Below are positions 3,516 through 57,602 of a stretch of 64,000 nucleotides of DNA, in pieces (the stretch's first letter is position 1; each line of letters opens with the position of its first letter). A model generated the notes under the pieces. That model ran no database searches, was not told where the DNA came from, and saw only the letters and a list, made by a program, of their open reading frames with translations. The position numbers and the translations under genes are program-made. Source of the stretch: Eledone cirrhosa (lineage: Eukaryota). Where the stretch lies: contig OZ024743.1 in assembly GCA_964016885.1 (NCBI GenBank), positions 1,116,001 through 1,180,000 of the forward strand. Direction: 5' to 3'.

Positions 3516-3545
<30 letters not shown>

Positions 3546-3548
<3 letters not shown>

Positions 3549-3692
3549 ACGAAGAAAGGGTGGTAAGCAACCAGGTGGACCATAACGCACACCATAGTAC
3601 TCAATATTTAGGGTAGTAGAATGGGTAATAGGGAATGAGACAGGACCCCGACGGCTGAGCTCCGGCCGTTTCGACAGCTAGATCCGAACGTT

Positions 3693-3751
<59 letters not shown>

Positions 3752-3912
3752 GGAAAATGTATGACCCCGACGGCAGAGCTGAAGCCGTTTCGACGAAACG
3801 GCTTCAGCTCTCCTGTCGGCCTCATACTTTTCCTTTTTCCCACTCTACTACCCTAAGTATTGAGTACTCTGGTGCGTTTTGGTCCATCTGGTTCCTTACC
3901 ACAATTGCTTTG

Positions 3913-3914
<2 letters not shown>
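3546..3914. mobile_element. Two family A elements (3546-3700 and 3750-3914)
   Basis: Shared ~100 bp tail ending at (TA)n plus a fold-back centred at or near the HHR GAAA. Confidence 0.8.
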
Positions 3915-3960
<46 letters not shown>

Positions 3961-6280: not shown

Positions 6281-6296
6281 TATATATATATATATA

Positions 6297-7215
6297 GTAT
6301 AAAGTATGCCCATAGAATCATTTGATAATATATATACACCATATCCTCTCCCAATTAGCATAATCAACCACACAAAAAATCAATTAAACCAGGCTATAAG
6401 ATTAAAAGGCACCTATGAAGAAATAGAGGATAAATAAACGACAGCAATTTATTCGTGATCAACCGCTATAGAATATCTACCCAACATTTCAATAGCACGT
6501 GGAAATCGATTAAATATACCGTCAACCTTACACAATTAGGTAGAAAATTAAAGTTAGAAGAAAAAATGCATATACACATACCAGGATTACGTTTCTACCC
6601 TCAGGGTTTCGTTCGCTTTCGGAAATATCCTATCAAGGATAAAATCTCGAGCTTCGAACTCATCAGGAAACAAACTCATTCGGACAAAGAATTTTCTTAA
6701 GTGATCCCCGCCAGAAACGAATTCAAAATGGCTAAGAACTGTGACGTGGCAGTGGTCAAGTCAGAAAGAATGTGATTGGTGGCTTACGGCGAGTGGGCAG
6801 GTTGCTAAAAAGCGCAGCCCAATATGGCCCAAATTGCATCTCAAACTTATGGTAGATTATCAAATATAAAGATTTACATATACACAAACTAGACAATGTC
6901 ACATATATATATGTTTTGGCAACCATTCACGATGTGGCTCAATGTTGAATTAGTAAATTAAATAATCAGAGCAATATACTAGAAAGTATGTCCATAGAAT
7001 CATTTGATAATATATATACACAATTTCCTCTCCCAATTAGCATAATCAACCACACAAAAAATCAATTAAACCAGGCTATAAGATTAAAAAGCACCTATGA
7101 AGAAATAGTAGATAAATAAACGACAACAATTTATTCGCGATCAACCGCTATAGAATATCTACCCAACATTTCAATAGCACGTGGAAATCGATTAAATATA
7201 CCGTCAACCATACAG

Positions 7216-7503: not shown

Positions 7504-7534
<31 letters not shown>

Positions 7535-7535
7535 T

Positions 7536-7698
7536 ATAACGAAGGAAGTGAGGTAAGGAACCAGCTGGACCATAACCCACCAGAGTACTCAATACTTTGG
7601 GTAGTAGAGTGGGTAATAGGAAAATGTTCAAGACCCCGACGGCAGAGCTTAAGCCGTCGAAACGGCTTGAGCTCTGCCGTCGGCGTCTTGAACATTTT

Positions 7699-7701
<3 letters not shown>
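7536..7701. mobile_element. Family A fold-back element
   Basis: ~40-bp inverted arms centred on gccgt-cgaa-acggc, plus an ~80-bp tail; (TA)n on both sides. Confidence 0.85.
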
Positions 7702-7776
<75 letters not shown>

Positions 7777-7842
7777 GAAGAGAGAAGAAACATTTAGATA
7801 TAATTAGTAATAAAATGTATCATACCTAAACTGTTCCTAAAT

Positions 7843-7930
7843 TCCTCGACTACGTAGTTTCGTGGCATAAACAAAAACAATATATCAAAGATATAGAGTC
7901 CTTGCGAGGTCTGCCGACTTATCAAGAGGA
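7843..7930 (-). ncRNA. Hammerhead ribozyme with U3-A8 variant core, family D
   Basis: Minus strand TCCTC TTGATAA GTcGGCA..TGCCAC GAAA CTACGTAG TC GAGGA; palindromic stem III, GUC site. Confidence 0.8.
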
Positions 7931-8433
7931 TACCTCATTTTACTAGTCTCAAGAACGCGTCTACACGACGTGAGAAAGAATCCCAAAAGGCGGAGGGGGA
8001 GATAGTCACGCGATATAACGGTCGAGAAACAGAGCTAAGCCTCTTATAACCACGAAGAAAATACCACGGAGGCGGAGGGGGTATTCATATCGAGGCCGCA
8101 GAAGAGGTAGTGAAGAAGGCGAGAAGTGTGAGTAATGGAAGCTTTCCAGTTGTCCCCACACTTCAAAGATTGCTCGACCAGAGGGAGTTATTAATATATT
8201 TAAAAACACACAGATACATGCGGACACACACATATATACATGAATGCATCCGCACCCAACTGTGAGTTAAGGGTGCCAACTTCACCGATGTTGCTCAATG
8301 AATGACTGGGACAGACCAATTCAGTTTGAACCAGACTGAACCAGTATCAGAGTTAAAAATACATTATGAAGAGAGAAGAAACATTTAGATATAATTAGTA
8401 ATAAAATGTATCATACCTAAACTGTTCCTAAAT

Positions 8434-8521
8434 TCCTCGACTACGTAGTTTCGTGGCATAAACAAAAACAATATATCAAAGATATAGAGTCCTTGCGAGG
8501 TCTGCCGACTTATCAAGAGGA
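8434..8521 (-). ncRNA. Hammerhead ribozyme with U3-A8 variant core, family D copy 2
   Basis: Same sequence as 7843-7930, 591 nt away. Confidence 0.8.
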
Positions 8522-9756
8522 TACCTCATTTTACTAGTCTCAAGAACGCGTCTACACGACGTGAGAAAGAATCCCAAAAGGCGGAGGGGGAGATAGTCAC
8601 GCGATATAACGGTCGAGAAACAGAGCTAAGCCTCTTATAACCACGAAGAAAATACCACATATTTGTATTTATATATATATATATACATATATAGGTGCGT
8701 TTAAAACACGCACACACACATATACTCCCACATATATGTGTGCATGTGTATGCGCACGCATGTATGTGTGTGTGAATGTTTGTATGTATGTGTGTGCGAA
8801 CGTAGAGCTAGCATGGCGTATTTGTCAGTTTGTTTTTGTTTTACTTATTCAAGCTTGATGTGATTGCGATGAGTTCGTACATGAAAACTAAAGATTTAAA
8901 TGTACCCTGCTGATGTGTACATCTCTGTATATATAAGGGCACATACACTTTTCTATTCTTTCAATGTTGTTGGAAGAATGGTGTAACATTTAGCGGTACC
9001 AGAATGCATATTCATTTTTATATTTATCTTTAGAATAGGGAACACAATCTCAGTGTTCTACATACCTATTTCTTCCCGAAGAGTATTTCCCATCTGAATA
9101 ATTTTCCAAAGCTATATACATCTGTAACAATGAGAGTGAGCAATCCTATACAGTGAATAAGAAAGGGATAACTTTTCACTCTTTTTTAATTTTGTTTAAT
9201 TTTGTTTTCGTTTTGTCAGTGTGTGTGTGAGGATTTTGTGTTGAAATAATTTTTTTGGGAAGCATTAAACGTATATATTTTGTATCTTATATATTTTTCA
9301 CAGTTTATTGAAAGGGGGAAAGACTGCACCCATATCCTTAAAAGAAGGTTTCTGAAATTGATTAACCACGGATCATTTTTTACCTCAGACTGGATATCCT
9401 ACGCGTGTCTCTTTTGCAAGAGTGGACCCTGCTAAATTATATCCAAAGCACCGAGCAGAAACCAAGAGAAATGTAAGGCAAACGTCAACCACTGCTATCT
9501 TAACACTCTGGAAATGTTTTCAAAAAGTGTGAACTCTTCTCTTCTTAGTTGGACCAGGATTCACCCCTCCCAGAAACTGCTACGCTGACGGTGATATTTT
9601 GTTTATTGTCAGTTCTGATGACAAAACAAAATGTGTTGTAGAATAAATTAAATGACGATCGGCCTGCTATTTCCTCCACAGTACCAACTGAGTTATTTTA
9701 TTTGAATCGTCATGAACATGACTGAACAGGAGAGACGTAGTGGTTCTATTAATTAA

Positions 9757-20191: not shown

Positions 20192-20820
20192 AATTAAAAT
20201 TTACGTGGAAATAAAAGACAAAAATGTACCTATATTTTCTTCAAAGTCCCAATTGCAGTTTCGACGAATCCGTTTACACCGATTTCTGTACTGTAAAAAG
20301 GCATCATCTCTGTGAGGTTAATAAGGCTTGTCAAAAGACCTCTAAAAATAGGACTGTTTCTTGATGCGTTCATAGCAAGTGTGAAATTCTCGCGAGGCGG
20401 AGGGAGAAATTTACACAACATACTGTGGTCACAGAAGGGTAGTTAGGTGGTCAGTGAGCGAGGAAGATATTTGCTAGAAAAAGCAGTTAATACACTCCCG
20501 GTTAACTCTACCATAGGGAAGTTTGGGACAATATAATAATGAAATACACACACACATATTCATATGTATATGTATGTGTGTGATGTCCGCCTTAACAAGT
20601 TTTGCACGATGACCGAAAGAGTTAAAATAATCAAAATAATTAAAATAACTCAAAAATCAGAGCTATTTATCAAATTAAAAATACGAGGAAATAATAGACA
20701 AAACTATACATATTTTGTCTTCAACGTCCCAACTGCAGTTTCGCCGAATCCGTTTGCACCGTATACTGCACTATAAAAATACATCATCGCTGTGAGGTTA
20801 ATAAGGCTTATCAAGAGAAC
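20192..20820 (-). mobile_element. Family N element, 480-bp monomer x1.3, with U3-A8 HHRs at 20246-20339 and 20726-20820
   Basis: Minus strand gttCTC TTGATAA GCC..GGC GAAA CTGCAG TT GGGAC; repeat period 480. Confidence 0.75.
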
Positions 20821-21247
20821 CCCCCTCCCCCCCCCCCCCCCCCAAAAAAAGAAATATATATATATATATTAACTGACACAAACAAAACAAAGATAGATAT
20901 CAAAATATGGAGATATGGATGGCTAGAAAAATGTAAGATGAATATAGAGAGCAAGACAGGAAAGAGAGAAAGAAAATTAGATAGATAGATAGATAGATAG
21001 ATAGATATGTTTCTTTATTAGCCACAGGGGCACAAAAGAAGGGGACAAATACAAAGGGGGAAGTTTACATACAATAAAAAACGTGTAAAATGTTATCACA
21101 AATGCAATTTAAAAAGTTAGTCGATTTTCCCCAATAGGGGGAGACAGTTTATGTGGGTAACACATACCCCCGAAAAAATGTGCAACCCTCATCTCCAGGA
21201 GTACGAAGAGTTTGTACTCCTTTCCTCTCCTCCTCCTTTTCCTCAAC

Positions 21248-23677
21248 CTACAGGCTGATATAGAGAGAAGGCCCATTCACTCGGGCCATTCTCGCCACTT
21301 TCACCCACCTTTCATAAAACTTGCTGGGGTACAGCACCTCTATTCCCATCCTGATTCTTCTTCCAAAGTGGTATTTGAAAAAAAGAATCAGTTGTTGGCC
21401 GGAGAGAAAGGTGTCTGACCTCAGCCCTTTCAACCTTGTCCACCATATAACCTCTTTCGCCATAGCTATCACACAAAGGAAAACCACCTCTCCTTCGTTT
21501 TTGAAGGAGGGTGGCGGTTTGATCATGACAATGGACTCGGTGGTCAACCGGATTGGTCCCACCCGCGACAATAGTCGTTCTACATAGCCCCACAGGTCAG
21601 TGACGCCCAGGCACTGTATGAATGCGTGGGCGACGGTTTCTTCGTCTCGCACGCACCTCGGACAGATCTTTTTTCCAGGGTCCCTTCCCGGGCGCCCATG
21701 TCTGTAGAGCTTGTCTCGAACTGGTAGAGCTCCTCGGTAGCACTGCCAGGCCAGGGACTTTTGGAAGTTGTCCATCGGTCCCGGGCGGAAGGTCCTACCG
21801 AACAGACTGGCCAGTTCATCTTCCTCTACGCCTAGAGTTTCACCGAGCGCGTCGTCGCACTTGCTGCAGATCAACCCTCTATAGAATGACGAAGTGGAGT
21901 CTCCACTGATCGCCGGGTCCGCCTGCCAGAGGGATGTGAGCGCCTGAGCACATTCGATGTGCCAGTCGCCCATTTTCCTCGGTCTTTGCTTGACCCAGGA
22001 CTGCAGCTCGGTCAGCGAGACGAGTCGTGGGAAGGCTCTCCTCACGAACGGGGCCCACACCGGTTGTCCGGTGAGGAATACGTAGAGATGCCGCAGCCTG
22101 AGCGCGTGTTTGCGCATCGGCAACCACGCCATCCCCCGCCCTCCGTTAGAAGGGTGTTGGCAGCAGATGGATCTTCTCAGCAAAGGAGCCCGCCTCTTCC
22201 AAAGGAATCGGAAGAGCGCGCGTTCCATTTTGGCGAGCGTTTTGGCTGGACAATGCACGACGGTCAAGCGGTAGTAGATGGCGGACGCTATAAAAGTGTT
22301 CGCCACCTCCGCTCGACCTTTCAAGGATAGTTTGCTCTCGGCCCACTTCTGGGTGAGTGCAAACACCTTTTCCGTCACTTCGTTCCAGTTCTTCTCCACC
22401 TGGAGGTCCGGACCAAACCAGACCCCGAGCAGCTTTATCGGTCCTTCTGTCCAGCGTCCGACGACGCCATCGGAAGGCATCGGTTTGCCTCTCCATGATC
22501 GGAGTTGCAAACCGATGGACTTGTCCCGGTTCAGCTTCGCTCCTGTGAAACTTTCGTATTCCTTCAGTAAGGTGCCGACTTCCTCGATTTGCGAGGCGCT
22601 CGACACCATTACTGTCACGTCGTCGGCGTAGGCCGACGCCGCTTTCCGCAGTCCCCGTTCCAGAGGGATGCCCTGCAATAGCTCCAACTTTCGCAGTAGT
22701 GGCTTGAGAGTCAGTACGTACAGAAGGGAGGAGAGAGGGCATCCCTGTCGAATGGATCGCGTAATATGGAACGGCTCAGAGAGGTAGCCGTTCACCTTGA
22801 CCCTTGAGCAGATGTTGCTGTTGTGCATTGCAGCAATCCAGCCCCTGAACACGGGTCCGAAGCCTGCCGCCTCGAGCACCGCATCCAGGTAACGATGGTC
22901 AACCCTATCGAAAGCCTTAGACTGATCCAAGTTGATCAGGGCCCCACCGAAGCCGGGTTTACACCCTACCCTCTCTATGATGTATCGCATGAGGTGGAGG
23001 TTGTCGTGTATGGACCTGGTAGGGATTGCGCATGTCTGCGCTTCTCCCACAAGGTTCTCGACGACAAGCGCCAGCCTCTTTGCCAAAATCTGTAACTCTG
23101 TGTTTAGCAGAGTTATGGGCCGGAAGTTGCCTATGTCATCCCTCTTATTCTCGTCCTTCCTGATTAGTGTGACCACGACCCCGGTTACAGAACTGGGAAT
23201 TCTCCCGTTCTGTTGCCAGTTGCAGTAGACCGCTTCCAGGAGACCGGAGAATAAGTCCAGCATTGCTACGTAAAATTCGTAGGGTAGACCGTCGAGACCT
23301 GGAGATTTGTGTTTGTCGCATTGGCTCAGCGCGTCCACTATCTCAACGGCTGAAATCGGCTTTTCGCAGAACTTTGCCTCGCTGTCCGAGAGTCGCGGTA
23401 GGCCGTCTAGGTATGGACCGAAATCGATAGCCCCTCCCGGCGCGCCGCCCCTCCCGAACAGTTGAGCAAAGTGCCGCTGAAAGGCAGCACACATCTGCTT
23501 CGGCTCACGTATCAAGCGTCCGTTTTGGTCCTTCAAAGACCGAATCGTGGACTTGTTGCCACTTTTTGCCTCCGTCACTCGGGCCCAGCTAACAGCTTTG
23601 GCTCCTTCGTTTCCCAGAGCACGTATTTTGCTTCTGACAACGCAGCCCTCGTGCTTTGCGTCGAAGAACTGGTCCAA
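21248..23677 (-). pseudogene. Tx1 ORF2 reverse transcriptase and C-terminal domain (frameshifted from the endonuclease)
   Basis: KSPGLDGLP, NFRPITLLN, LDQSKAFDRV, IRQGCPLS, YADD, CPRC..ETVAHAFIQC. Confidence 0.95.
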
Positions 23678-23726
23678 GGCCGTTCTCGTTGCTTCTAATT
23701 GCCTCTTCTACTTTATCTACCAGTTC

Positions 23727-24650
23727 CTATTCGGTCTTATTTCTATCTAACACTAATACTATACTAAAACCTATCGAGTCTAATCTAACTGCCCTCTTGA
23801 GAGAGTACCACCATCTGTTGTTGACAATGGCCCCTGTCAAGTACTGTTTAACTAAAATGCTAATCCGTCTACTGTAGGCTTTGCTTGTCGGTAACGACAA
23901 GTTCAGCTTCCAGTAGCCGGGTCCTTGTCTATGGGTTCTATCAAGGTTGGCCATGCAGGTCACTAGTTTGTGATCTGAATAGGCAACCATGAACATTTGT
24001 GGACAGCTTAACATGTCCCTATCCTTATTTCTAATTAGAACCGTATCTAGGTACGATCTAGATGTTCCGCTACGATTACTCCACGTCCACAGTGGCGCAG
24101 TCGGAAAATCTAGTCGATACCTATCGGCCAGGTCAAATCGGTCGATTAACTGTTTGAGGCTGTTACACCCCCCTTTATCGGGACATGCTACCACATAGTT
24201 CCAACGTGCATCTAGGATTCCATTCCAGTCCCCCACTAAAAGCAAGGAGCGGGACGTTCCCAGAAAAGTCTCTAGACGTTTGAAGAAGTCTGGCCGCGGT
24301 GTCCCGGATGGGGCATATGCGGCCACCAGCCTGAAGGCTCCACCTTCACTACCGTCAACGTCTAGGACCACCAGTCGACCCTCCGGGTCCAGATGTACCG
24401 TCTGTGTTACGAGGCCCAGGTGTTTCCGCAGCAAAACGGTAACTCCGCCCCCACCCCCCGGTTGACAGAGAGATGCGTAGATATCAAAGTCATCGAAGAT
24501 GGGGGCCAGCTGTCGCTCGCTGTGGATCCTGGACTCGCAAATGGCTACCACATCCATACTGTGCGACCTGAGGTCGTTTAAGAGTTTGCCCTGTTTCCAG
24601 GGCATCCCCAGGCTGCGTACGTTCACACACCCAACTCTTATATTGGCCAT
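23727..24650 (-). pseudogene. Tx1 ORF2 apurinic endonuclease domain
   Basis: MANIRVGCVNVRSL, AICES, VGDWN, SYLD, YSDH, GPGYWKLN. Confidence 0.93.
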
Positions 24651-26363
24651 GTTGGTGGGGTGGGGACGGAGATGTTTGGTGGGGTGGGGACTGGTGGGAT
24701 GGGGGTGTCTGGAGTGGGGAGACATTTGAGAAGGACGCAGTTGAGTGGTTTCACGCAGGAATTCCCCACATCCTTCTCAAATGTTTCTTTTAGGGACCTA
24801 TAAGTTTGTATAGGGACCCTAATCAGTTTTAGGTTCAGCTTTTTGCTATTTTTGATAGAGTGGGCGAAAGTTTTCGTGATGGTCTCCATTTGTGTTTTGT
24901 TTTCAGTGTTTATGTAAGTGTCAGCGTAATTTTCTTGTGTTGTGTTTGTTTTTGTCTGTAGTTCTTGTGTGTGCTTTCGTTTTGTTGTAGGCGTTTTGTT
25001 TTCAGGGGGTGGGGGTTTTGTTTGTGATGTTTTTGTTGTTTGTGTTGGTGGTTGTATGTTTGTGGTAGTGTTTGCTTTTTTTTTGCTTTTGTGATGTCTT
25101 TTCTTTCTTTTCGAGCGATGGGATTCCCCCTCGTCTTCACTGGGTGATGGCGAGATAGCCTCATCTGTTGTATCGTCTGTGTGATTGGGGAGGGGTATGT
25201 CTTTGGGAGCTGTTGTGTCTGTATGTGATTTTGCAGTGGTTTTAGGTGGAGTGGGGTTGGGTGGGACTGTGTTTGTTGTGGTTATTTTTGTGTGTTGGTG
25301 TTGTTGTTGTGGTGGTGTTGGTGGTTGTGTTGTTTTGATGGGTGTCGGCAGAAGAGCCTTTTTTTTATTCATTAATTTAGGACAGGAAGCCCTCAGGTGA
25401 CCCCTGCTAAAGCAATGGTAACATGAAGGCCGCCTACCCTCAACCGAAAAATTTATGTAGGTGAGTCCGTCCAGGAGTACACGTTGTGGGATCATAGCTA
25501 TTCGCTCTGGGCTCATTTGCACCAGAACTTCAATGCTAGTCCCATTGAATACATCTCTGGGGGACTTTCCTACTGACAGTATTCTGTCTTCATCAAAATT
25601 GATGAAGCCGCACAGTATCCACCATATGTTCACCTTTGGTGTGACACTCGTGATTTTGATCTTTTGTGTCCTTTTTCCCATGTATGTAGGGAAAAAGGTG
25701 TACAGGTTGGATACAATTGGCGACACAGAGTAATTTTGGGCCGTCAATTGATCCTTCATGAGTACCGAAATACTCCCAAAAAGTTTGCTTCTTTGAATGA
25801 ATGCAATATCATTCATTGAATTTTTGAAAACCAGTTCAATTTCTTTCTGTGACAATTGGACTGGTTTTCGGGTAGAATTGGAAACTGTCCTAAAAACTAT
25901 CGTTTTGAGAGCAGTTTCCTTGCGAATTTCTACCGGAGAATTGATGCTGAAAGCACCATTTTTTTCGAAAGTGACATATCTCCTAGCGTCCTTTAAAAGT
26001 TGTTCAGCATTTGTTATGTCGAGATATATCAGTCCTCCTTTTTTTGAACTGTCTTTGCAAAGGAGATTTTTGGTTTCTTTGTGGAATTATCCGTGCTGGT
26101 GGTGTTGTTATTATTGTTGTTATTGTTGTTGTTATTCTTGTTGTCACCGATGTTGATATTATTCGTATTTTCCTTGGTGTTGTTGTTGTCTTTGATGCTG
26201 GTGTTATTGGTGTTGTCTTTATTTTTTCTTTGTTGTTGTTATCATTGTTGTTTTTATCATCATTATTGGTGCTGCTGTTATTTTTGTTGTCATTGAACTG
26301 TTTGGTGTCATTTGTGTTGTTTGGATATGAATTTGTTTTTGTATTTTCATTTCGTCTTTCCAT
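24638..26363 (-). pseudogene. Tx1 ORF1 gag-like protein (frame break near 26000)
   Basis: CYHCFSRGHLRASC zinc knuckle, then a Pro/Thr/Lys-rich tail; Asn/Thr-rich N-terminal piece at 26004-26363. Confidence 0.8.
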
Positions 26364-33110: not shown

Positions 33111-33114
<4 letters not shown>

Positions 33115-33602
33115 CGAGAACAAATCCAGGATGCAGTTGCAGGAAGCCGGATGAATGCCCATTGCAGGGTAAATGTAACACCAAATCTGTTGTTTATGAG
33201 GCTAAAATAACACCGGTAATCAACAACCAGCCAGCCAGGAGTGAGCGATATGTCGGTATGACCCAGGACAGGTTTAAAACCAGATTTTACTCACATGTCG
33301 CTTCTTTTAAGCACTCCGATAAACGAACATCAACGGCCCTCGCAAGTAAGGTGTGGGAATTCAAAGATAGTAACCTCCCGTACTCTATCGATTGGTCTAT
33401 CTTAGACCATTCGAGGGAGTACCAAAGGGGCACAAAGAATTCTTCTTTGTGTACCACAGAAAAATATAGGATTTTGCTAAACTTGAGAGCCACTTCTGCT
33501 TGCCTAAACACAAAGACTGAGATCTTCAGATGTTGTCCTCATCTGAAATCACATCTGATCTGTAACTGGATTGACACTCCTATGATAAATCAACCGCCTT
33601 GA
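33111..33602 (+). pseudogene. Penelope-like element GIY-YIG endonuclease (5'-truncated at (TA)n)
   Basis: CSCRKPDECPLQGKC, VVYEA, RYVGMT, FKTRFYSH, LCTTEK, LNTKTE, CCPH. Confidence 0.9.
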
Positions 33603-42105: not shown

Positions 42106-42863
42106 CGTAAAATAAGAAAATTATAAAATTAACTTACTTACTAAAATTTCATTCCAACTAATTAGTTTCTGAAAGGGAATAAACATAGTTTCCGAAGAAA
42201 CGTACGGAGAAGCCTTTCGTCATCAGGGAAGTCTATTCTCAGCTAAGTTTCCAGGCAATACGTGGACACAGGGAACTTATACAAAAATAATTCAGTGGAT
42301 GGAAAAAAGCAAAGCGTGGACTAAATTCCAAGCCATTGAAAAAATCACTGCCTACTGCGTCGGTGGCAAATTCAAAAGAATCAGTCACGTGACATCGAGG
42401 TCAATCAGTGAAGAGTGGTTTGTTAAGAAGACAGCAGCCGGACCGTTACTATAGTAGCAGTTTTGGCCAATTTTTGCTCGACAAAATAATTTGGAGATAA
42501 TTATAAAGAATTAGTATATCTAGTAACATATATATACACAGATGCATACTTATGTTAGCAAATATATAGGTTTTGTCTTAGTAACTTTGTGGTTCAATGC
42601 ATGGGGATGCAGAACAATAATATGAGAGACGTAAAATAAGAAAATTATAAAATTAACTTACTAAAATTTCACTCCTAAAATTCCACAGGAGTGAAATTTT
42701 AGTAAGTAAGTTAATTTTATAATTTTCTTATTTTACGTCTCTCATATTATTGTTCTGCATCCCCATGCATTGAACCACAAAGTTACTAAGACAAAACCTA
42801 TATATTTGCTAGCATAAGTATGCATCTGTGTATATATATGTTACTAGATATACTAATTCTTTA
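42098..42863 (-). mobile_element. Family E element: 524-bp monomer plus partial repeat and ~175-bp inversion
   Basis: agagacgtaaaataag at 42101 and 42625; inverted from ~42685 to 42863; (TA)n on both sides. Confidence 0.85.
42152..42230 (-). ncRNA. Type I hammerhead ribozyme, family E
   Basis: Minus strand TTCC CTGATGA cGAAAGG..CCTTTCa GAAA CTAATTAG TT GGAA; palindromic stem III, GUU site. Confidence 0.82.
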
Positions 42864-42878
42864 TATATATATATATAT

Positions 42879-43970
42879 GAAGAAGAAGTTTATGAAACGG
42901 AAATGCGGGTATAAAGAATTTACTAGGTAACAATTGTTTCTATAGTGTGTGGGTTACCTATACCTCGCTATTTGTATAATATAAAAATATTATCATAAAT
43001 CGTAGGTACACTGTAAGAGAACACACCATGTCGTCAGACCTTTATGGTAGAATGATAGTCTTAGGGTTCAAGGCTGTCAGAGTAGTAGAGATTGTATAGA
43101 AGAAAATGTTTTGGCAGCAGTTAGCTAAATGAGGCGTGTTAGGGTTGGCGGGGGAAGTAAATTCTTCTAGTGGTGTTGTTTGGACAAAATTTAGTTAAAG
43201 GGGTCAATGTAGTACAGAATTATAGACAAGTTATTGGGGCTATTATAGTAGCAGGATATTTCTAAAGGGGTCTAAAAAATAGTGTTTAGTGCTATTATTA
43301 TAAAAAGCGATATCGTGTGTATAAACATATAAAAATATGAAATAAAAATAATAAAAATTTGCAAATGGTGGTGTAAAAAGATAACATTATATGCATTTAA
43401 AAAAAGAAAAAGTCGTTTTTAAACGATGGTTACAGTAAAGTGAACGTTCAATTTTGCTGTTCAAAAGTTTGTTTTCTGACGTTAAAATGCAGTATATCTC
43501 CATATTGCATAATTTACAAAATCGGTGATTTTGCCTTATGCTGGCGCATCGCAATAATTTGCCAATCAAGGGAGAATGCTTGATTGTTCTTCCGAAGCTG
43601 CCAGGCTTTATCGGCGAGGGTTGTTACGGAGCGCATTTTCTCATGCTTGATCGAAGATCGATGTTGGTATAGGCGAGCTTTGAAAGATGTTGCGGTACAT
43701 CCGACGTAATACCATTTGTTGGTTCCGGAATTTATTGTACATCGGTAGACAATATTGCGTGTTAGGCAATAGTTATTCAATGGGCACGAACTTGGTTTAG
43801 TGCAGTTACAGTTATTTTTATGTTTTGCAGTAGTATCCTGGATAGTTTGGTGGGGTTGTAGCTGCGTGTTAGTGCGTTGTATGTCGCCATGCTGGTGCGC
43901 TGTGTCATTAGGGATGTACTTATTTAGTATTGTTGAGTTTAGTTTTTTAATTAGTTGTTCTATGTTAGGT
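42879..43970 (-). mobile_element. 5'-truncated Penelope-like element: GIY-YIG ORF end plus pseudo-LTR
   Basis: CNCTKPSSCPLNNYC, IVYRC, YYVGCT, FKARLYQH, CKLCNME, LLNSKIE, CNH (43387-43830, frameshift near 43560). Confidence 0.9.
42925..43041 (-). ncRNA. Type I hammerhead ribozyme in PLE pseudo-LTR, family O
   Basis: Minus strand AGGT CTGACGA cATGGTGTG..CACACTATa GAAA CAATTG TT ACCT; ~70-nt stem II insert. Confidence 0.8.
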
Positions 43971-44423: not shown

Positions 44424-44496
<73 letters not shown>

Positions 44497-44498
<2 letters not shown>

Positions 44499-44672
44499 TC
44501 AGGACCCCGACGGCTGAGCTCCGGCCGTTTCGATAGCTAGATCCGAACTGTCGAAAGAGCTGGAGCTCAGCCGTCGGGTCCTGAATCTGTTCATATTACC
44601 CATTTTACTACCCCCAGGTGTCGAGTACTCTGGTGCGTTATGGTCCACCTAGTATTTAAAACACCCTCATTG

Positions 44673-44674
<2 letters not shown>
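44497..44674. mobile_element. Family A fold-back element
   Basis: Inverted arms around tagctagatccgaactg; tail ends in (TA)n. Confidence 0.8.
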
Positions 44675-44738
<64 letters not shown>

Positions 44739-44740
<2 letters not shown>

Positions 44741-47515
44741 AATTACAAAATAGGAGGAAATAATAGACAAAAATATACCTATTTTTTCTTCAAAGTCCCG
44801 ACTGCTGTTTCGCCGATCCGTGTGCTACGTTTCTACACTATAAAAATGCATCATTACTGTGAGCCTGAAACGGCTTATCAAGAGGCTCCTCAGAAAAAGG
44901 ACTGTTTCTTTGACGCGTTCGTAGCAAGTGAGAACATCTCTAGAGACGGAGGGGGGGGGGTTTAACACGTGATACAGTAGTTGATAAAAGGGCTGTTTCT
45001 TTCGTAGCAAGTGAGAATATTTCGTGAGACGGAGGGAGAAATTAACACAAGATACAGTGGTGACAGACGGGTAGTAAGATGGACACTGAGCGAATAACGT
45101 ATTTGCTAGAAAAATCAATTAGTACCCTACTGGGTTATCTCGACCATAGAGGAGTTTGGGACAATATAATAATGAAATACACACACATATTCATCTGTAT
45201 ATGTGTGTGTGTGGTGTCCGCCATAACAGGTTTGTGCTCCATGACCGAAAGAGTTAAAATAATCAAAATAATTTAAATAACTCAATAATCAGAGATCAAT
45301 AATCAAATTAACAATCTATCTAAGGCGGGCAAAATTCCCAACATCCATGGACGAGTTCTCTCCAGCGGTCTCTGTTCCTCATTATCGCTGCCATGTCCTG
45401 CGTCTCCAACAGACCAGTGTCTGTCCTTAGGGCATCAACATACGTTAACCTTGGTCTTCCTCTTCTAGTGTGTCCATGTAGGGGCTCCCAAAGGAGCACT
45501 GAGTGCAATGTCAACTCTGGATGTCGGTGAGCATGTCCAGCTAACCTCAGTCTCCTCTGTGTCACTTTTGAGCTGACTTTTGGGATGCTCCCATACAGCT
45601 CTGAGTTTTTCATCCTCAGTGTATAATGATTAATCTTCAGAGCCATCCTCAACATTCTCGTGTAGCACCCATCCACCATCTGTGTGAGTTTCTTGGTCAG
45701 TGTCCAAGTCTCAGACCCATACAGCAGCACAGACTCCACTACAGCAATGAAGAGGCGGACTTTCAGGTCTCTACGAAGGTCCGACTTCCACACCGATCTC
45801 AAGCTGTGGCACGCCGCCCAGGCCTTGCTCTTCCTCTCAACCACATCATCTTCCGTATTCCCAATCTTTGCTCCCAAATACAGGAAGCCCTCAACCAATT
45901 CTAGCGGCTTCCCGCCTACATTAGTGATCCCCTCTGGCTTCTCAACATTCTCTACCAGATATTTTGTTTTAGTCTCATTCATTCTCAGCCCCACACTCAT
46001 CGACACAGTCTCAACCTCCCGCATCAAATCCTCTGCCTCCTTCACTGTATTTGTCACCAAAACTATGTCGTCGGCAAATTCAGCATCCGATATCTTTTTC
46101 ACCTTAACTCTCCTGCTCTGAGCCGGTGCTACAGTAAAGCCAGAGTCCTGGTGTTTCTCCAGTGCAAGGCGCATACAATAGTCCACTACGATGATAAAAA
46201 GTTAGGGAGCCAATGTATCTCCCTGGAGCACTCCAGCCAGTATCTCAAAAAACTCTGTCATCCCATCAGGTGTAATGACTTGGGCTTTGGTGTTGGTGTA
46301 GAGCAGTGATATAAGGTCCACTATCTTCATGGGGATTCCATAAGCCTGTAAGATCTTCATCAGGCAGTAACGGTCCACAGAATCAAAGGCCTTCCTAAAG
46401 TCAATGAAAACCATGACCGCAGGAAGGCACTTTGTTCTAGCTCCCTATAATATCCTCCTCAACATCAGGATGTGACTGGTAGTTGATCTAACCTCTCTGA
46501 AGCCGTTCTGGTTGTCCCTGAGCTTCTTCTCCATCTCAGGCTGGATCCTGTTAAGAATCATCCTGTTGAGGGTCTTTGCCACAAGTGACGTCTGTGAGAT
46601 CCTCCTGTAGTTGTTGCTGTTAGAAAGATCTCCCTTCTTTGGCACTGGGACGATGTTACTGATCCTCCACTGATTCGGGGCAACTCCCTTCTCCAGTGCC
46701 CCGTTACAGAACCCCAGGATGATATCATCAAAATCACACCTCTTCATCACCTCTGATGCCACTCCATCTTCTCCATGAGCCTTTCCCTCCTTGATCCTCT
46801 TCTTGGCTCTCTGAAGCTCCTCTCTGGTGAAGGGTTCTGTCTCAACATCCAGTTCCTCAAACAGCCGCCTGATCTCCCCAGTGCTCTCGGCTGTGGAGGG
46901 TGGCTCTCCTAGTAGGGTCCTAAAATGGTCTAGCCATTTCCTCTTCCTATCCTCGGGCCCCGTTCCCTGGATCTGACTCGAACACCTCTTCCTCCCTGTG
47001 ATCTCGTTGATGATCATCCAGCTCTCCTTACATCCAGATCTGTCAACCGCTCTCTCCACACTTCTGATCTTCTCTATCAGTGCCTCCTCTCTGACCTCAG
47101 TGTAAGCGGTACAGAGTTCTTCCCTCATCACCTCCACAGTCTCCATCCTCTCCTCCGTAGGATCAGCATAGAATTGGTCCTTGGCAGCCTTCAGGTGTTC
47201 TCTGGCTGCACACACTTTTGGGTTTGCAGAGCTGACGTGCTTCCCTTTGTTCTTTTTAACAATACGAGGAAATAATAGATAAAAATATACCTATTTTTTC
47301 TTCAAAGTCCCAACTGCTGTTTCGCCGATCCGTGCGGAACGCTCTGCACTATAAAAATGCATCATCGCTGTGAGGCTGATGCCGCTTATCAACAGACCCA
47401 TCAGAAAAAAGGACTGTGTCTGTGACGTATTCGTAGCAAGTGAGAAAGTCTCTCGAGGGGGAGGGAAGAATTAACACGTGATACAGTGGTCATAAAAAAG
47501 ACCACTGTATCACGC
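44739..47515 (-). mobile_element. Family N element split by an RTE insertion; HHRs at 44795-44886 and 47307-47397
   Basis: Homologous to 20192-20820; TTGATAA GCCG..CGGC GAAA CAGCAG TC GGGAC in the first copy. Confidence 0.78.
45316..47255 (-). mobile_element. 5'-truncated RTE-like LINE with 8-bp TSD
   Basis: PVPKKGD, FIDFRKAFDSV, GVLQGDTLAP, EFADD, LLYGSETW, RLRLAGH; TSD ttaacaat at 45308-45315 and 47256-47263. Confidence 0.93.
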
Positions 47516-57285: not shown

Positions 57286-57351
<66 letters not shown>

Positions 57352-57354
<3 letters not shown>

Positions 57355-57550
57355 CGAAGGAAATGTGGTAAGGAACCAGGTGGACCATAACGCACCAAAG
57401 TACTCAATACTTAGGGTAGTAGAGTGGGTAATAGGAACAAGTAAGACCCCGACGGCTGAGCTCAAGCCGTTTCGACGGCTAATTCTGTACTCAATGTACA
57501 GAATTAGCCGTCGAAACGGCTTGAGCTCAGCCGTCGGAGTCTTACTTGTT

Positions 57551-57553
<3 letters not shown>
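57352..57553. mobile_element. Family A fold-back element
   Basis: ~60-bp inverted arms centred on gtac-tcaat-gtac, plus tail. Confidence 0.85.

Positions 57554-57602
<49 letters not shown>

Follow-up and report, generated by a model that had tools for sequence, protein, structure and literature searches.

The minus strand of the window analysed here (the whole stretch of 64,000 nt from Eledone cirrhosa contig OZ024743.1) carries two identical type I hammerheads, 591 nt apart, each with the core UUGAUAA and a palindromic stem III (Table 1). What element carries them, and how did it reach this site? How animal retrozymes are copied into genomes is an open question, and so are the tandem, inverted and tailed insertions of Penelope-like elements. 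In our judgement, the locus is probably a 1.5-unit copy of a non-LTR retrozyme, likely moved from an edited and likely circular monomer by a (TA)n-targeting Penelope-like enzyme.

A 591-nt non-coding unit with a U3-A8 hammerhead

We found the complete type I core in both copies (UUGAUAA...GAA A...U C, including the 3-8 pair); the initial annotation had described UUGAUAA in both, and the cuts and 591-nt monomer that it predicted agree with the motif positions. Its view of the twin motifs as a delimiting pair did not hold, and they belong to neighbouring units of a tandem array. A perfect direct repeat of 296 nt contains both motifs and has a period of 591; hence, the element at 8658-7772 is 1.5 turns of a 591-nt unit. 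The unit is non-coding, and with a longest ATG frame of 75 aa it has no ORF with the RT and GIY-YIG domains of an autonomous Penelope-like element. A reading as an LTR retrozyme was rejected because the direct repeat is 1.5 tandem units, the topology is type I and the junctions lie in (TA)n; plant-type LTR retrozymes, in contrast, have a type III hammerhead, true LTRs and a 4-bp target duplication.

Table 1. Features of the retrozyme locus, in window positions
Feature	Position	Strand	Remarks
Type I hammerhead 1	8434..8521	-	predicted cut 8439/8438
Hammerhead 1, stem I	8521-8517, 8438-8434	-	5' strand UCCUC, 3' strand GAGGA; 5 bp
Hammerhead 1, core	8516-8510, 8452-8450, 8439	-	U3UGAUA8A9, GAA and C17, respectively
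Hammerhead 1, stem II	8509-8453	-	G-C, U-A, bulged C, 4 bp, then inner 44 nt, which form an additional hairpin
Hammerhead 1, stem III	8449-8440	-	palindrome ACUACGUAGU
Type I hammerhead 2, identical to 1	7843..7930	-	core 7925-7919, C17 7848, predicted cut 7848/7847
Direct repeat, 296 nt	8658-8363, 8067-7772	-	100% identical
Single-arm 591-nt retrozyme insertion	7772..8658	-	unit bases 1-591, then 1-296
Predicted cut-to-cut monomer	7848..8438	-	591 nt
Hairpin directly 3' of the cut site	8366..8438	-	stops just short of end A; second copy 7775-7847
End A	7772	-	unit base 296 (family range 296-301); 3' end of the arm, joined to (TA)n
End B site	8194	-	unit base 465 (range 463-473); unused in the window copy
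A-to-B segment	8194..8362	-	about 165-169 nt; counterpart of the Penelope 'tail' as described in the available parts of PMC8557442 and PMC11167929
(TA)n target tract, 3' junction	7701..7773	.	
TA-rich flank, 5' junction	8659..8700	.	

A pattern of core, GAAAC and palindrome had 7,232 matches in the 3.0-Gb genome and 0 for the reversed control; hence, the motif is not due to chance. Where the flanks of the core were fixed, 6,842 of 6,856 copies were U3-A8, 6 were C3-A8, 8 were U3-G8 and none was C3-G8. U3-A8 is the rule of the 591-nt family, and the compensatory change proposed for the two window motifs is upheld, the family consensus not being the canonical CUGAUGA. The pair is not the new oddity that it had seemed, since natural U3-A8 covariation is already published (PMC3088659), with about 1,300 U3-A8 matches among Schistosoma Penelope-type hammerheads in the available text of PMC4209133.

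Near-identical copies of the unit lie on many contigs in arrays of period 591 (at least 120 matches at 98-100%, from 40 of the 718 candidates scored; array numbers come from 60 fetched loci and those behind the match and pattern searches). The units are thus dispersed, tandem and non-coding, with one type I hammerhead each, and on these genomic features the family belongs to the animal non-LTR retrozymes, a class also defined by its expression as linear and circular monomer RNA. It resembles them, as they appear in the accessible parts of PMC7229834 and 10.64898/2026.07.22.740005, in this unit structure, in the palindromic stem III, in its thousands of copies, and in the circular intermediate and Penelope helper proposed for it. 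For animal retrozymes, the same sources propose circles and a Penelope helper, and neither step is demonstrated there. Coral, mussel and axolotl retrozymes, in contrast, have units of about 220-390 nt, and the U3-A8 core and long bulged stem II also set the present family apart. Its two-armed (TA)n insertions with two fixed ends and its array-wide A>G changes have no counterpart described in the same portions of those sources.

Insertion ends and the template of the arms

Family copies stop at two fixed unit positions, A (about 296-301) and B (about 465), both into (TA)n. Following contig 1 in order, we sampled 40 loci with 65 arm ends; 59 were A or B, and 57 of these adjoin (TA)n. Every two-armed insertion with two classifiable ends combined A with B (33/33), and A+A or B+B never occurred. 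This count joins 18/18 from the 40 contig-1 loci, with the duplicate L164 counted once, and 15/15 from a second set of 20 loci; it omits 22 single-armed loci, the duplicate half of L164 and five loci with one unclassifiable end (L158, L160, L177, L179 and L205). The arms of such insertions diverge and are joined head to head at their 5'-truncated ends, end B being the 3' end of the opposite arm; the window copy consists of one arm only, which ends at A. We infer that ends A and B are reverse-transcription start sites 1 and 2. Partial tandems, an inverted 5'-truncated arm and fixed 3' ends with a tail are what we found, and partial tandems, an inverted arm and a tail make up the structure of Penelope-like elements (PMC8557442, in part).

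The arms span 0.1 to 7.5 units, pass through the cut site and stop at scattered points, with only 1 of 89 5' ends within 10 nt of the cut site. Crossing the cut site without enrichment of 5' ends there is expected of a ligated circle or of an uncut multimer. We found a concentration of 5' ends at unit bases 575-35 (27/125 vs 11 expected), most 5' ends being scattered; 5 of the 125 arms, that of the window copy among them, start exactly at unit base 1. The cluster may mark the start of linear transcripts, or a pause. A TATA-like word precedes unit base 1 by about 22 nt (window 8067-8090, 8658; unit bases 570-1) and could possibly be an internal promoter or a point of reverse-transcription pausing. 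At another locus (L170:1266-2429), a short Neptune-type piece with two arms has its upstream end fused to an arm of the family. A template switch may have produced this junction, but we did not count it as a hybrid copy, as divergence is higher in the Neptune part (94%, 79%) and a nested insertion would account for it equally well.

Divergence was 0.22% within an arm, 0.27% between arms and 1.38% between loci. Variants present in all covering units (n = 45, a set that includes subfamily differences and was polarised by majority) comprised, on the ribozyme strand, 23 A>G and 6 T>C changes (p = 9e-6). Single-unit variants (n = 59) comprised 5 A>G vs 12 T>C, and the contrast with the all-unit set was significant (Fisher p = 0.0015). 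A G preceded the changed A in 1/23 cases vs 28/133 in the background (p = 0.03). The bias towards A>G and the scarcity of a preceding G fit ADAR editing and its neighbour preference. The changed A was not enriched in predicted pairs (13/23 vs 80/132). Counted strictly, array-wide A>G changes number 10, of which one locus, L193, contributes 6, and only 2 array-wide variants occurred in a replicate set of loci picked for their similarity to the window.

At L193, 8 rare variants, 6 of them A>G, are array-wide (7/7 or 8/8 units) and present in both arms. A 33-nt stretch with three of these variants occurs 4+3 times, all at L193 and nowhere else in the assembly. An A>G-rich haplotype that is private to one locus and found in every covering unit of both arms points to one edited monomer copied repeatedly, likely a circle; its parent could be missing from the assembly. 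A 621-nt closed contig in X1 was rejected as evidence of a circle, because a tandem array fits equally well.

We consider it unlikely that Penelope-type mobilisation instead started from uncut linear multimers, with arrays that grow and homogenise through changes in DNA or re-use of templates, and with no part for circles. If the units of a linear multimer were edited independently, they would not all bear the same marks, as all 7-8 units of L193 do in the private haplotype. Most 5' ends are scattered; those clustered close to unit base 1 suit a linear template. One case for a multimer is L197, where two variants (unit bases 104 and 299) recur in the two arms at positions that mirror each other and are not in all units; for this insertion, they require a multimer that both arms copied in the same register. 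Such mirror sharing amounts to 2 pairs vs 26 non-mirrored carriers, all at this one locus, and the pattern still supports a single RNA as the source of both arms. Partly shared variants numbered 6 in total. Published work has unprocessed RNA as the main substrate in vitro (PMC11167929, available part), which also fits a multimer. A>G changes common to all units are a natural label that separates circular from linear templates.

Folding and conservation of the hammerhead

The 591-nt monomer folds at -178.9 kcal/mol (z = -6.49), and 0 of 100 shuffles folded equally well. For two 106-nt motif copies, the minimum-energy co-fold is a double hammerhead with a 10-bp inter-copy stem III, in line with the dimeric folding that the palindrome had suggested. 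In the folded 887-nt transcript, the inter-copy stem III had a predicted probability of 0.73-0.87 and stem I one of 0.00, because the 3' strand of stem I pairs in the downstream hairpin. With this strand sequestered in the predicted fold, cleavage at the predicted hammerhead sites is plausible and likely conditional.

The Rfam scan of the window gave no hammerhead match at the gathering score, nor at E <= 10, which bears out the initial expectation that the motif escapes standard searches; matches at E <= 10 were sub-threshold microRNA-like hairpins only, which we took as chance. The U3-A8 core matters mainly since families with it evade Rfam and CUGANGA searches.

An older sister retrozyme family lies at 20340-20830 and 44740-45400 of the window (minus strand), with motifs at 20814 and about 44880. 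Its copies are 79-89% alike, with a U3-A8 core and an 8-nt palindrome, and its (TA)n ends are about 133 nt apart, judged from few B-type ends. It aligns weakly to the 591-nt unit (score 225 vs 159 ± 11), and 23 of 32 decayed copies have intact cores. Between the two families the core is invariant, and 3 of 9 stem pairs are changed on both sides. These changes fall in stems I and II; stem III is palindromic at differing lengths. In this set of 9 related sequences, in effect one comparison of two families, 96.3% of 81 alignment cells pair, vs 28-56% in slid controls.

Such co-change of three stem pairs around a kept core, between two otherwise weakly similar families, argues against the hammerhead being a passenger from a Penelope terminal repeat, intact in sequence yet dispensable for spread, or active only with protein. 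We hold this to be quite unlikely, also because a monomer bottleneck at exact unit length requires some processing step. The absence of stem I from the predicted in-context fold would suit a passenger, and near-fixation of the core in a young family reflects descent, not selection. Related motifs are weak or inactive in the accessible parts of three sources: Penelope-type hammerheads cleave poorly in vitro (PMC4209133), mutating the hammerhead left in vitro insertion unaffected (PMC11167929), and of 9 Xenopus retrozyme dimers, 8 failed to cleave (10.64898/2026.07.22.740005).

The family hammerhead resembles the Penelope-type minimal hammerheads of PMC4209133 (available part), among them the U3-A8 variant of Schistosoma Cercyon elements, in its U3-A8 core, 5-bp stem I, long bulged stem II, G10.1-C11.1 and palindromic stem III. 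Unlike Penelope-type hammerheads, which are mostly single and heterogeneous, it is present in each unit of a tandem family that is young and homogeneous, and its stem II has an extension of about 44 nt.

Ordinary local tandem duplication, a satellite or an assembly artefact would account for a perfect repeat beside long (TA)n tracts, yet it is already refuted by the genome-wide pattern, in which copies are dispersed, number in the thousands, end at two fixed positions, have arms placed head to head and show an A>G bias on one strand, and by the presence of the unit junction in contigs from three independent runs, so that we give it almost no weight.

Candidate helper and mode of copying

Autonomous Penelope-like elements of the same genome have the same two-end build in (TA)n. 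One Neptune-type family has 68 nt between its ends (11 and 10 ends) and two further ones have ends about 37-39 nt apart, the Neptune-type label resting on the C-x2-5-CxxC linker motif. A Hydra-type family has ends about 70 nt apart in (TA)n, a canonical hammerhead core and open frames of 711-750 aa (n = 11), including three that are 99.5-100% identical over 600 aa; by motifs taken from the accessible part of PMC8557442, 10 of the 11 frames have RWK, DKT and CxCX5C. Several Neptune-type families have U3-A8-type cores inside their repeats, and Neptune fragments near copies of the 591-nt family have TA tracts in common with them. The (TA)n target is common to the family and to autonomous Neptune- and Hydra-type copies.

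We found no similarity beyond simple repeats between the 591-nt unit and the sampled Neptune-type elements and one Hydra-type family (endonuclease candidates scored: 150/10,597 and 150/57,651). A relaxed U3-A8 pattern gave 14 matches vs 14 in the control, and 0 of the 6 copies inspected were ORF-linked. Hence, the candidate helper, of Hydra or Neptune type, is proposed from target and geometry.

Like the Neptune and Hydra clades and PAc of Anolis (PMC8557442, PMC11167929, in the parts available), the family has partial tandems, an inverted 5'-truncated partner arm, a one-end 'tail', (TA)n targets and a hammerhead upstream of the ends; unlike them, it has a 591-nt unit without an ORF. Its tail of about 165-169 nt compares with 30-40 bp in the Penelope-like elements of these sources and with 68-70 nt in two autonomous families of the same genome. 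The Anolis element has two internal start sites in vitro, and both strands are extended (PMC11167929, in part).

Taken as a retrozyme copy that a Penelope-like enzyme moved, the locus would have arisen as follows. Arrays would be transcribed on the hammerhead strand, and two hammerheads are predicted to pair via the 10-nt palindrome, cut and free 591-nt monomers, probably inefficiently or with the help of protein. Part of the RNA would be A-to-I edited and ligated into a circle. A putative helper would then nick both (TA)n strands, as the pattern of the insertions suggests, and prime at two internal sites about 165 nt apart, one per strand, near unit bases 296-300 and 465, respectively. Each arm would run through the cut site for the lengths seen, the 5' ends would join head to head, and failure of one arm would leave a single arm, as in the window copy. 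We are evenly balanced on whether the insertions are, further, a fossil record of rolling-circle reverse transcription, in which a dimeric Penelope-type enzyme copies an edited 591-nt circle from two priming sites, one per target strand, for up to five rounds per arm; RNA folding, not a fixed 30-40-nt tail, would set the priming distance, and RNA editing would drive the evolution of the family.

The ribozyme variant is already known, and what is added is the insertion record, with two fixed putative priming sites about 165 nt apart and editing-like marks repeated across whole arrays. A literature search for evidence of editing or rolling-circle copying in retrozyme insertions and for octopus hammerheads found none, within a scope that left most subscription papers outside. 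The family offers an RNA that is short and defined, with two predicted priming sites and (TA)n as its target, and the same genome contains intact candidate helper frames.

Hammerhead cores also vary among the terminal repeats of Neptune-type elements (L107:2273-7700, L109:1775-5062, L119, L125, L126 and L110): some families have UUGAAAA or UUGAUAA (U3-A8) and another has canonical CUGAAGA. L109 has an open frame of 1,096 aa. The window itself has GIY-YIG fragments with the CxCX5C linker, a Hydra-clade signature, at 33111-33602 (plus strand) and 43514-43969 (minus strand); the former is a member of a young, abundant family whose frames of about 715 aa are intact and whose hammerheads have a canonical core (window 34310).

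Other repeats lie in the window. In the same (TA)n tract as the retrozyme copy, 7529-7703 is a short insertion from another family, two-armed and heavily truncated, with the look of a perfect hairpin; fuller members (L224, L230, L236) have a U3-A8 hammerhead whose stem II is long, and more copies lie at about 276-430, 3543-3923, 44495-44681 and 57344-57555. Canonical CUGAUGA type I hammerhead-like motifs of other repeat families occur at 6596-6666 and 42156-42226 (both minus strand), and a 247-nt direct repeat at 6292 and 6974. A near-complete non-LTR retrotransposon with RT and zf-RVT domains, unrelated to the retrozyme, occupies 21248-26086 (minus strand).
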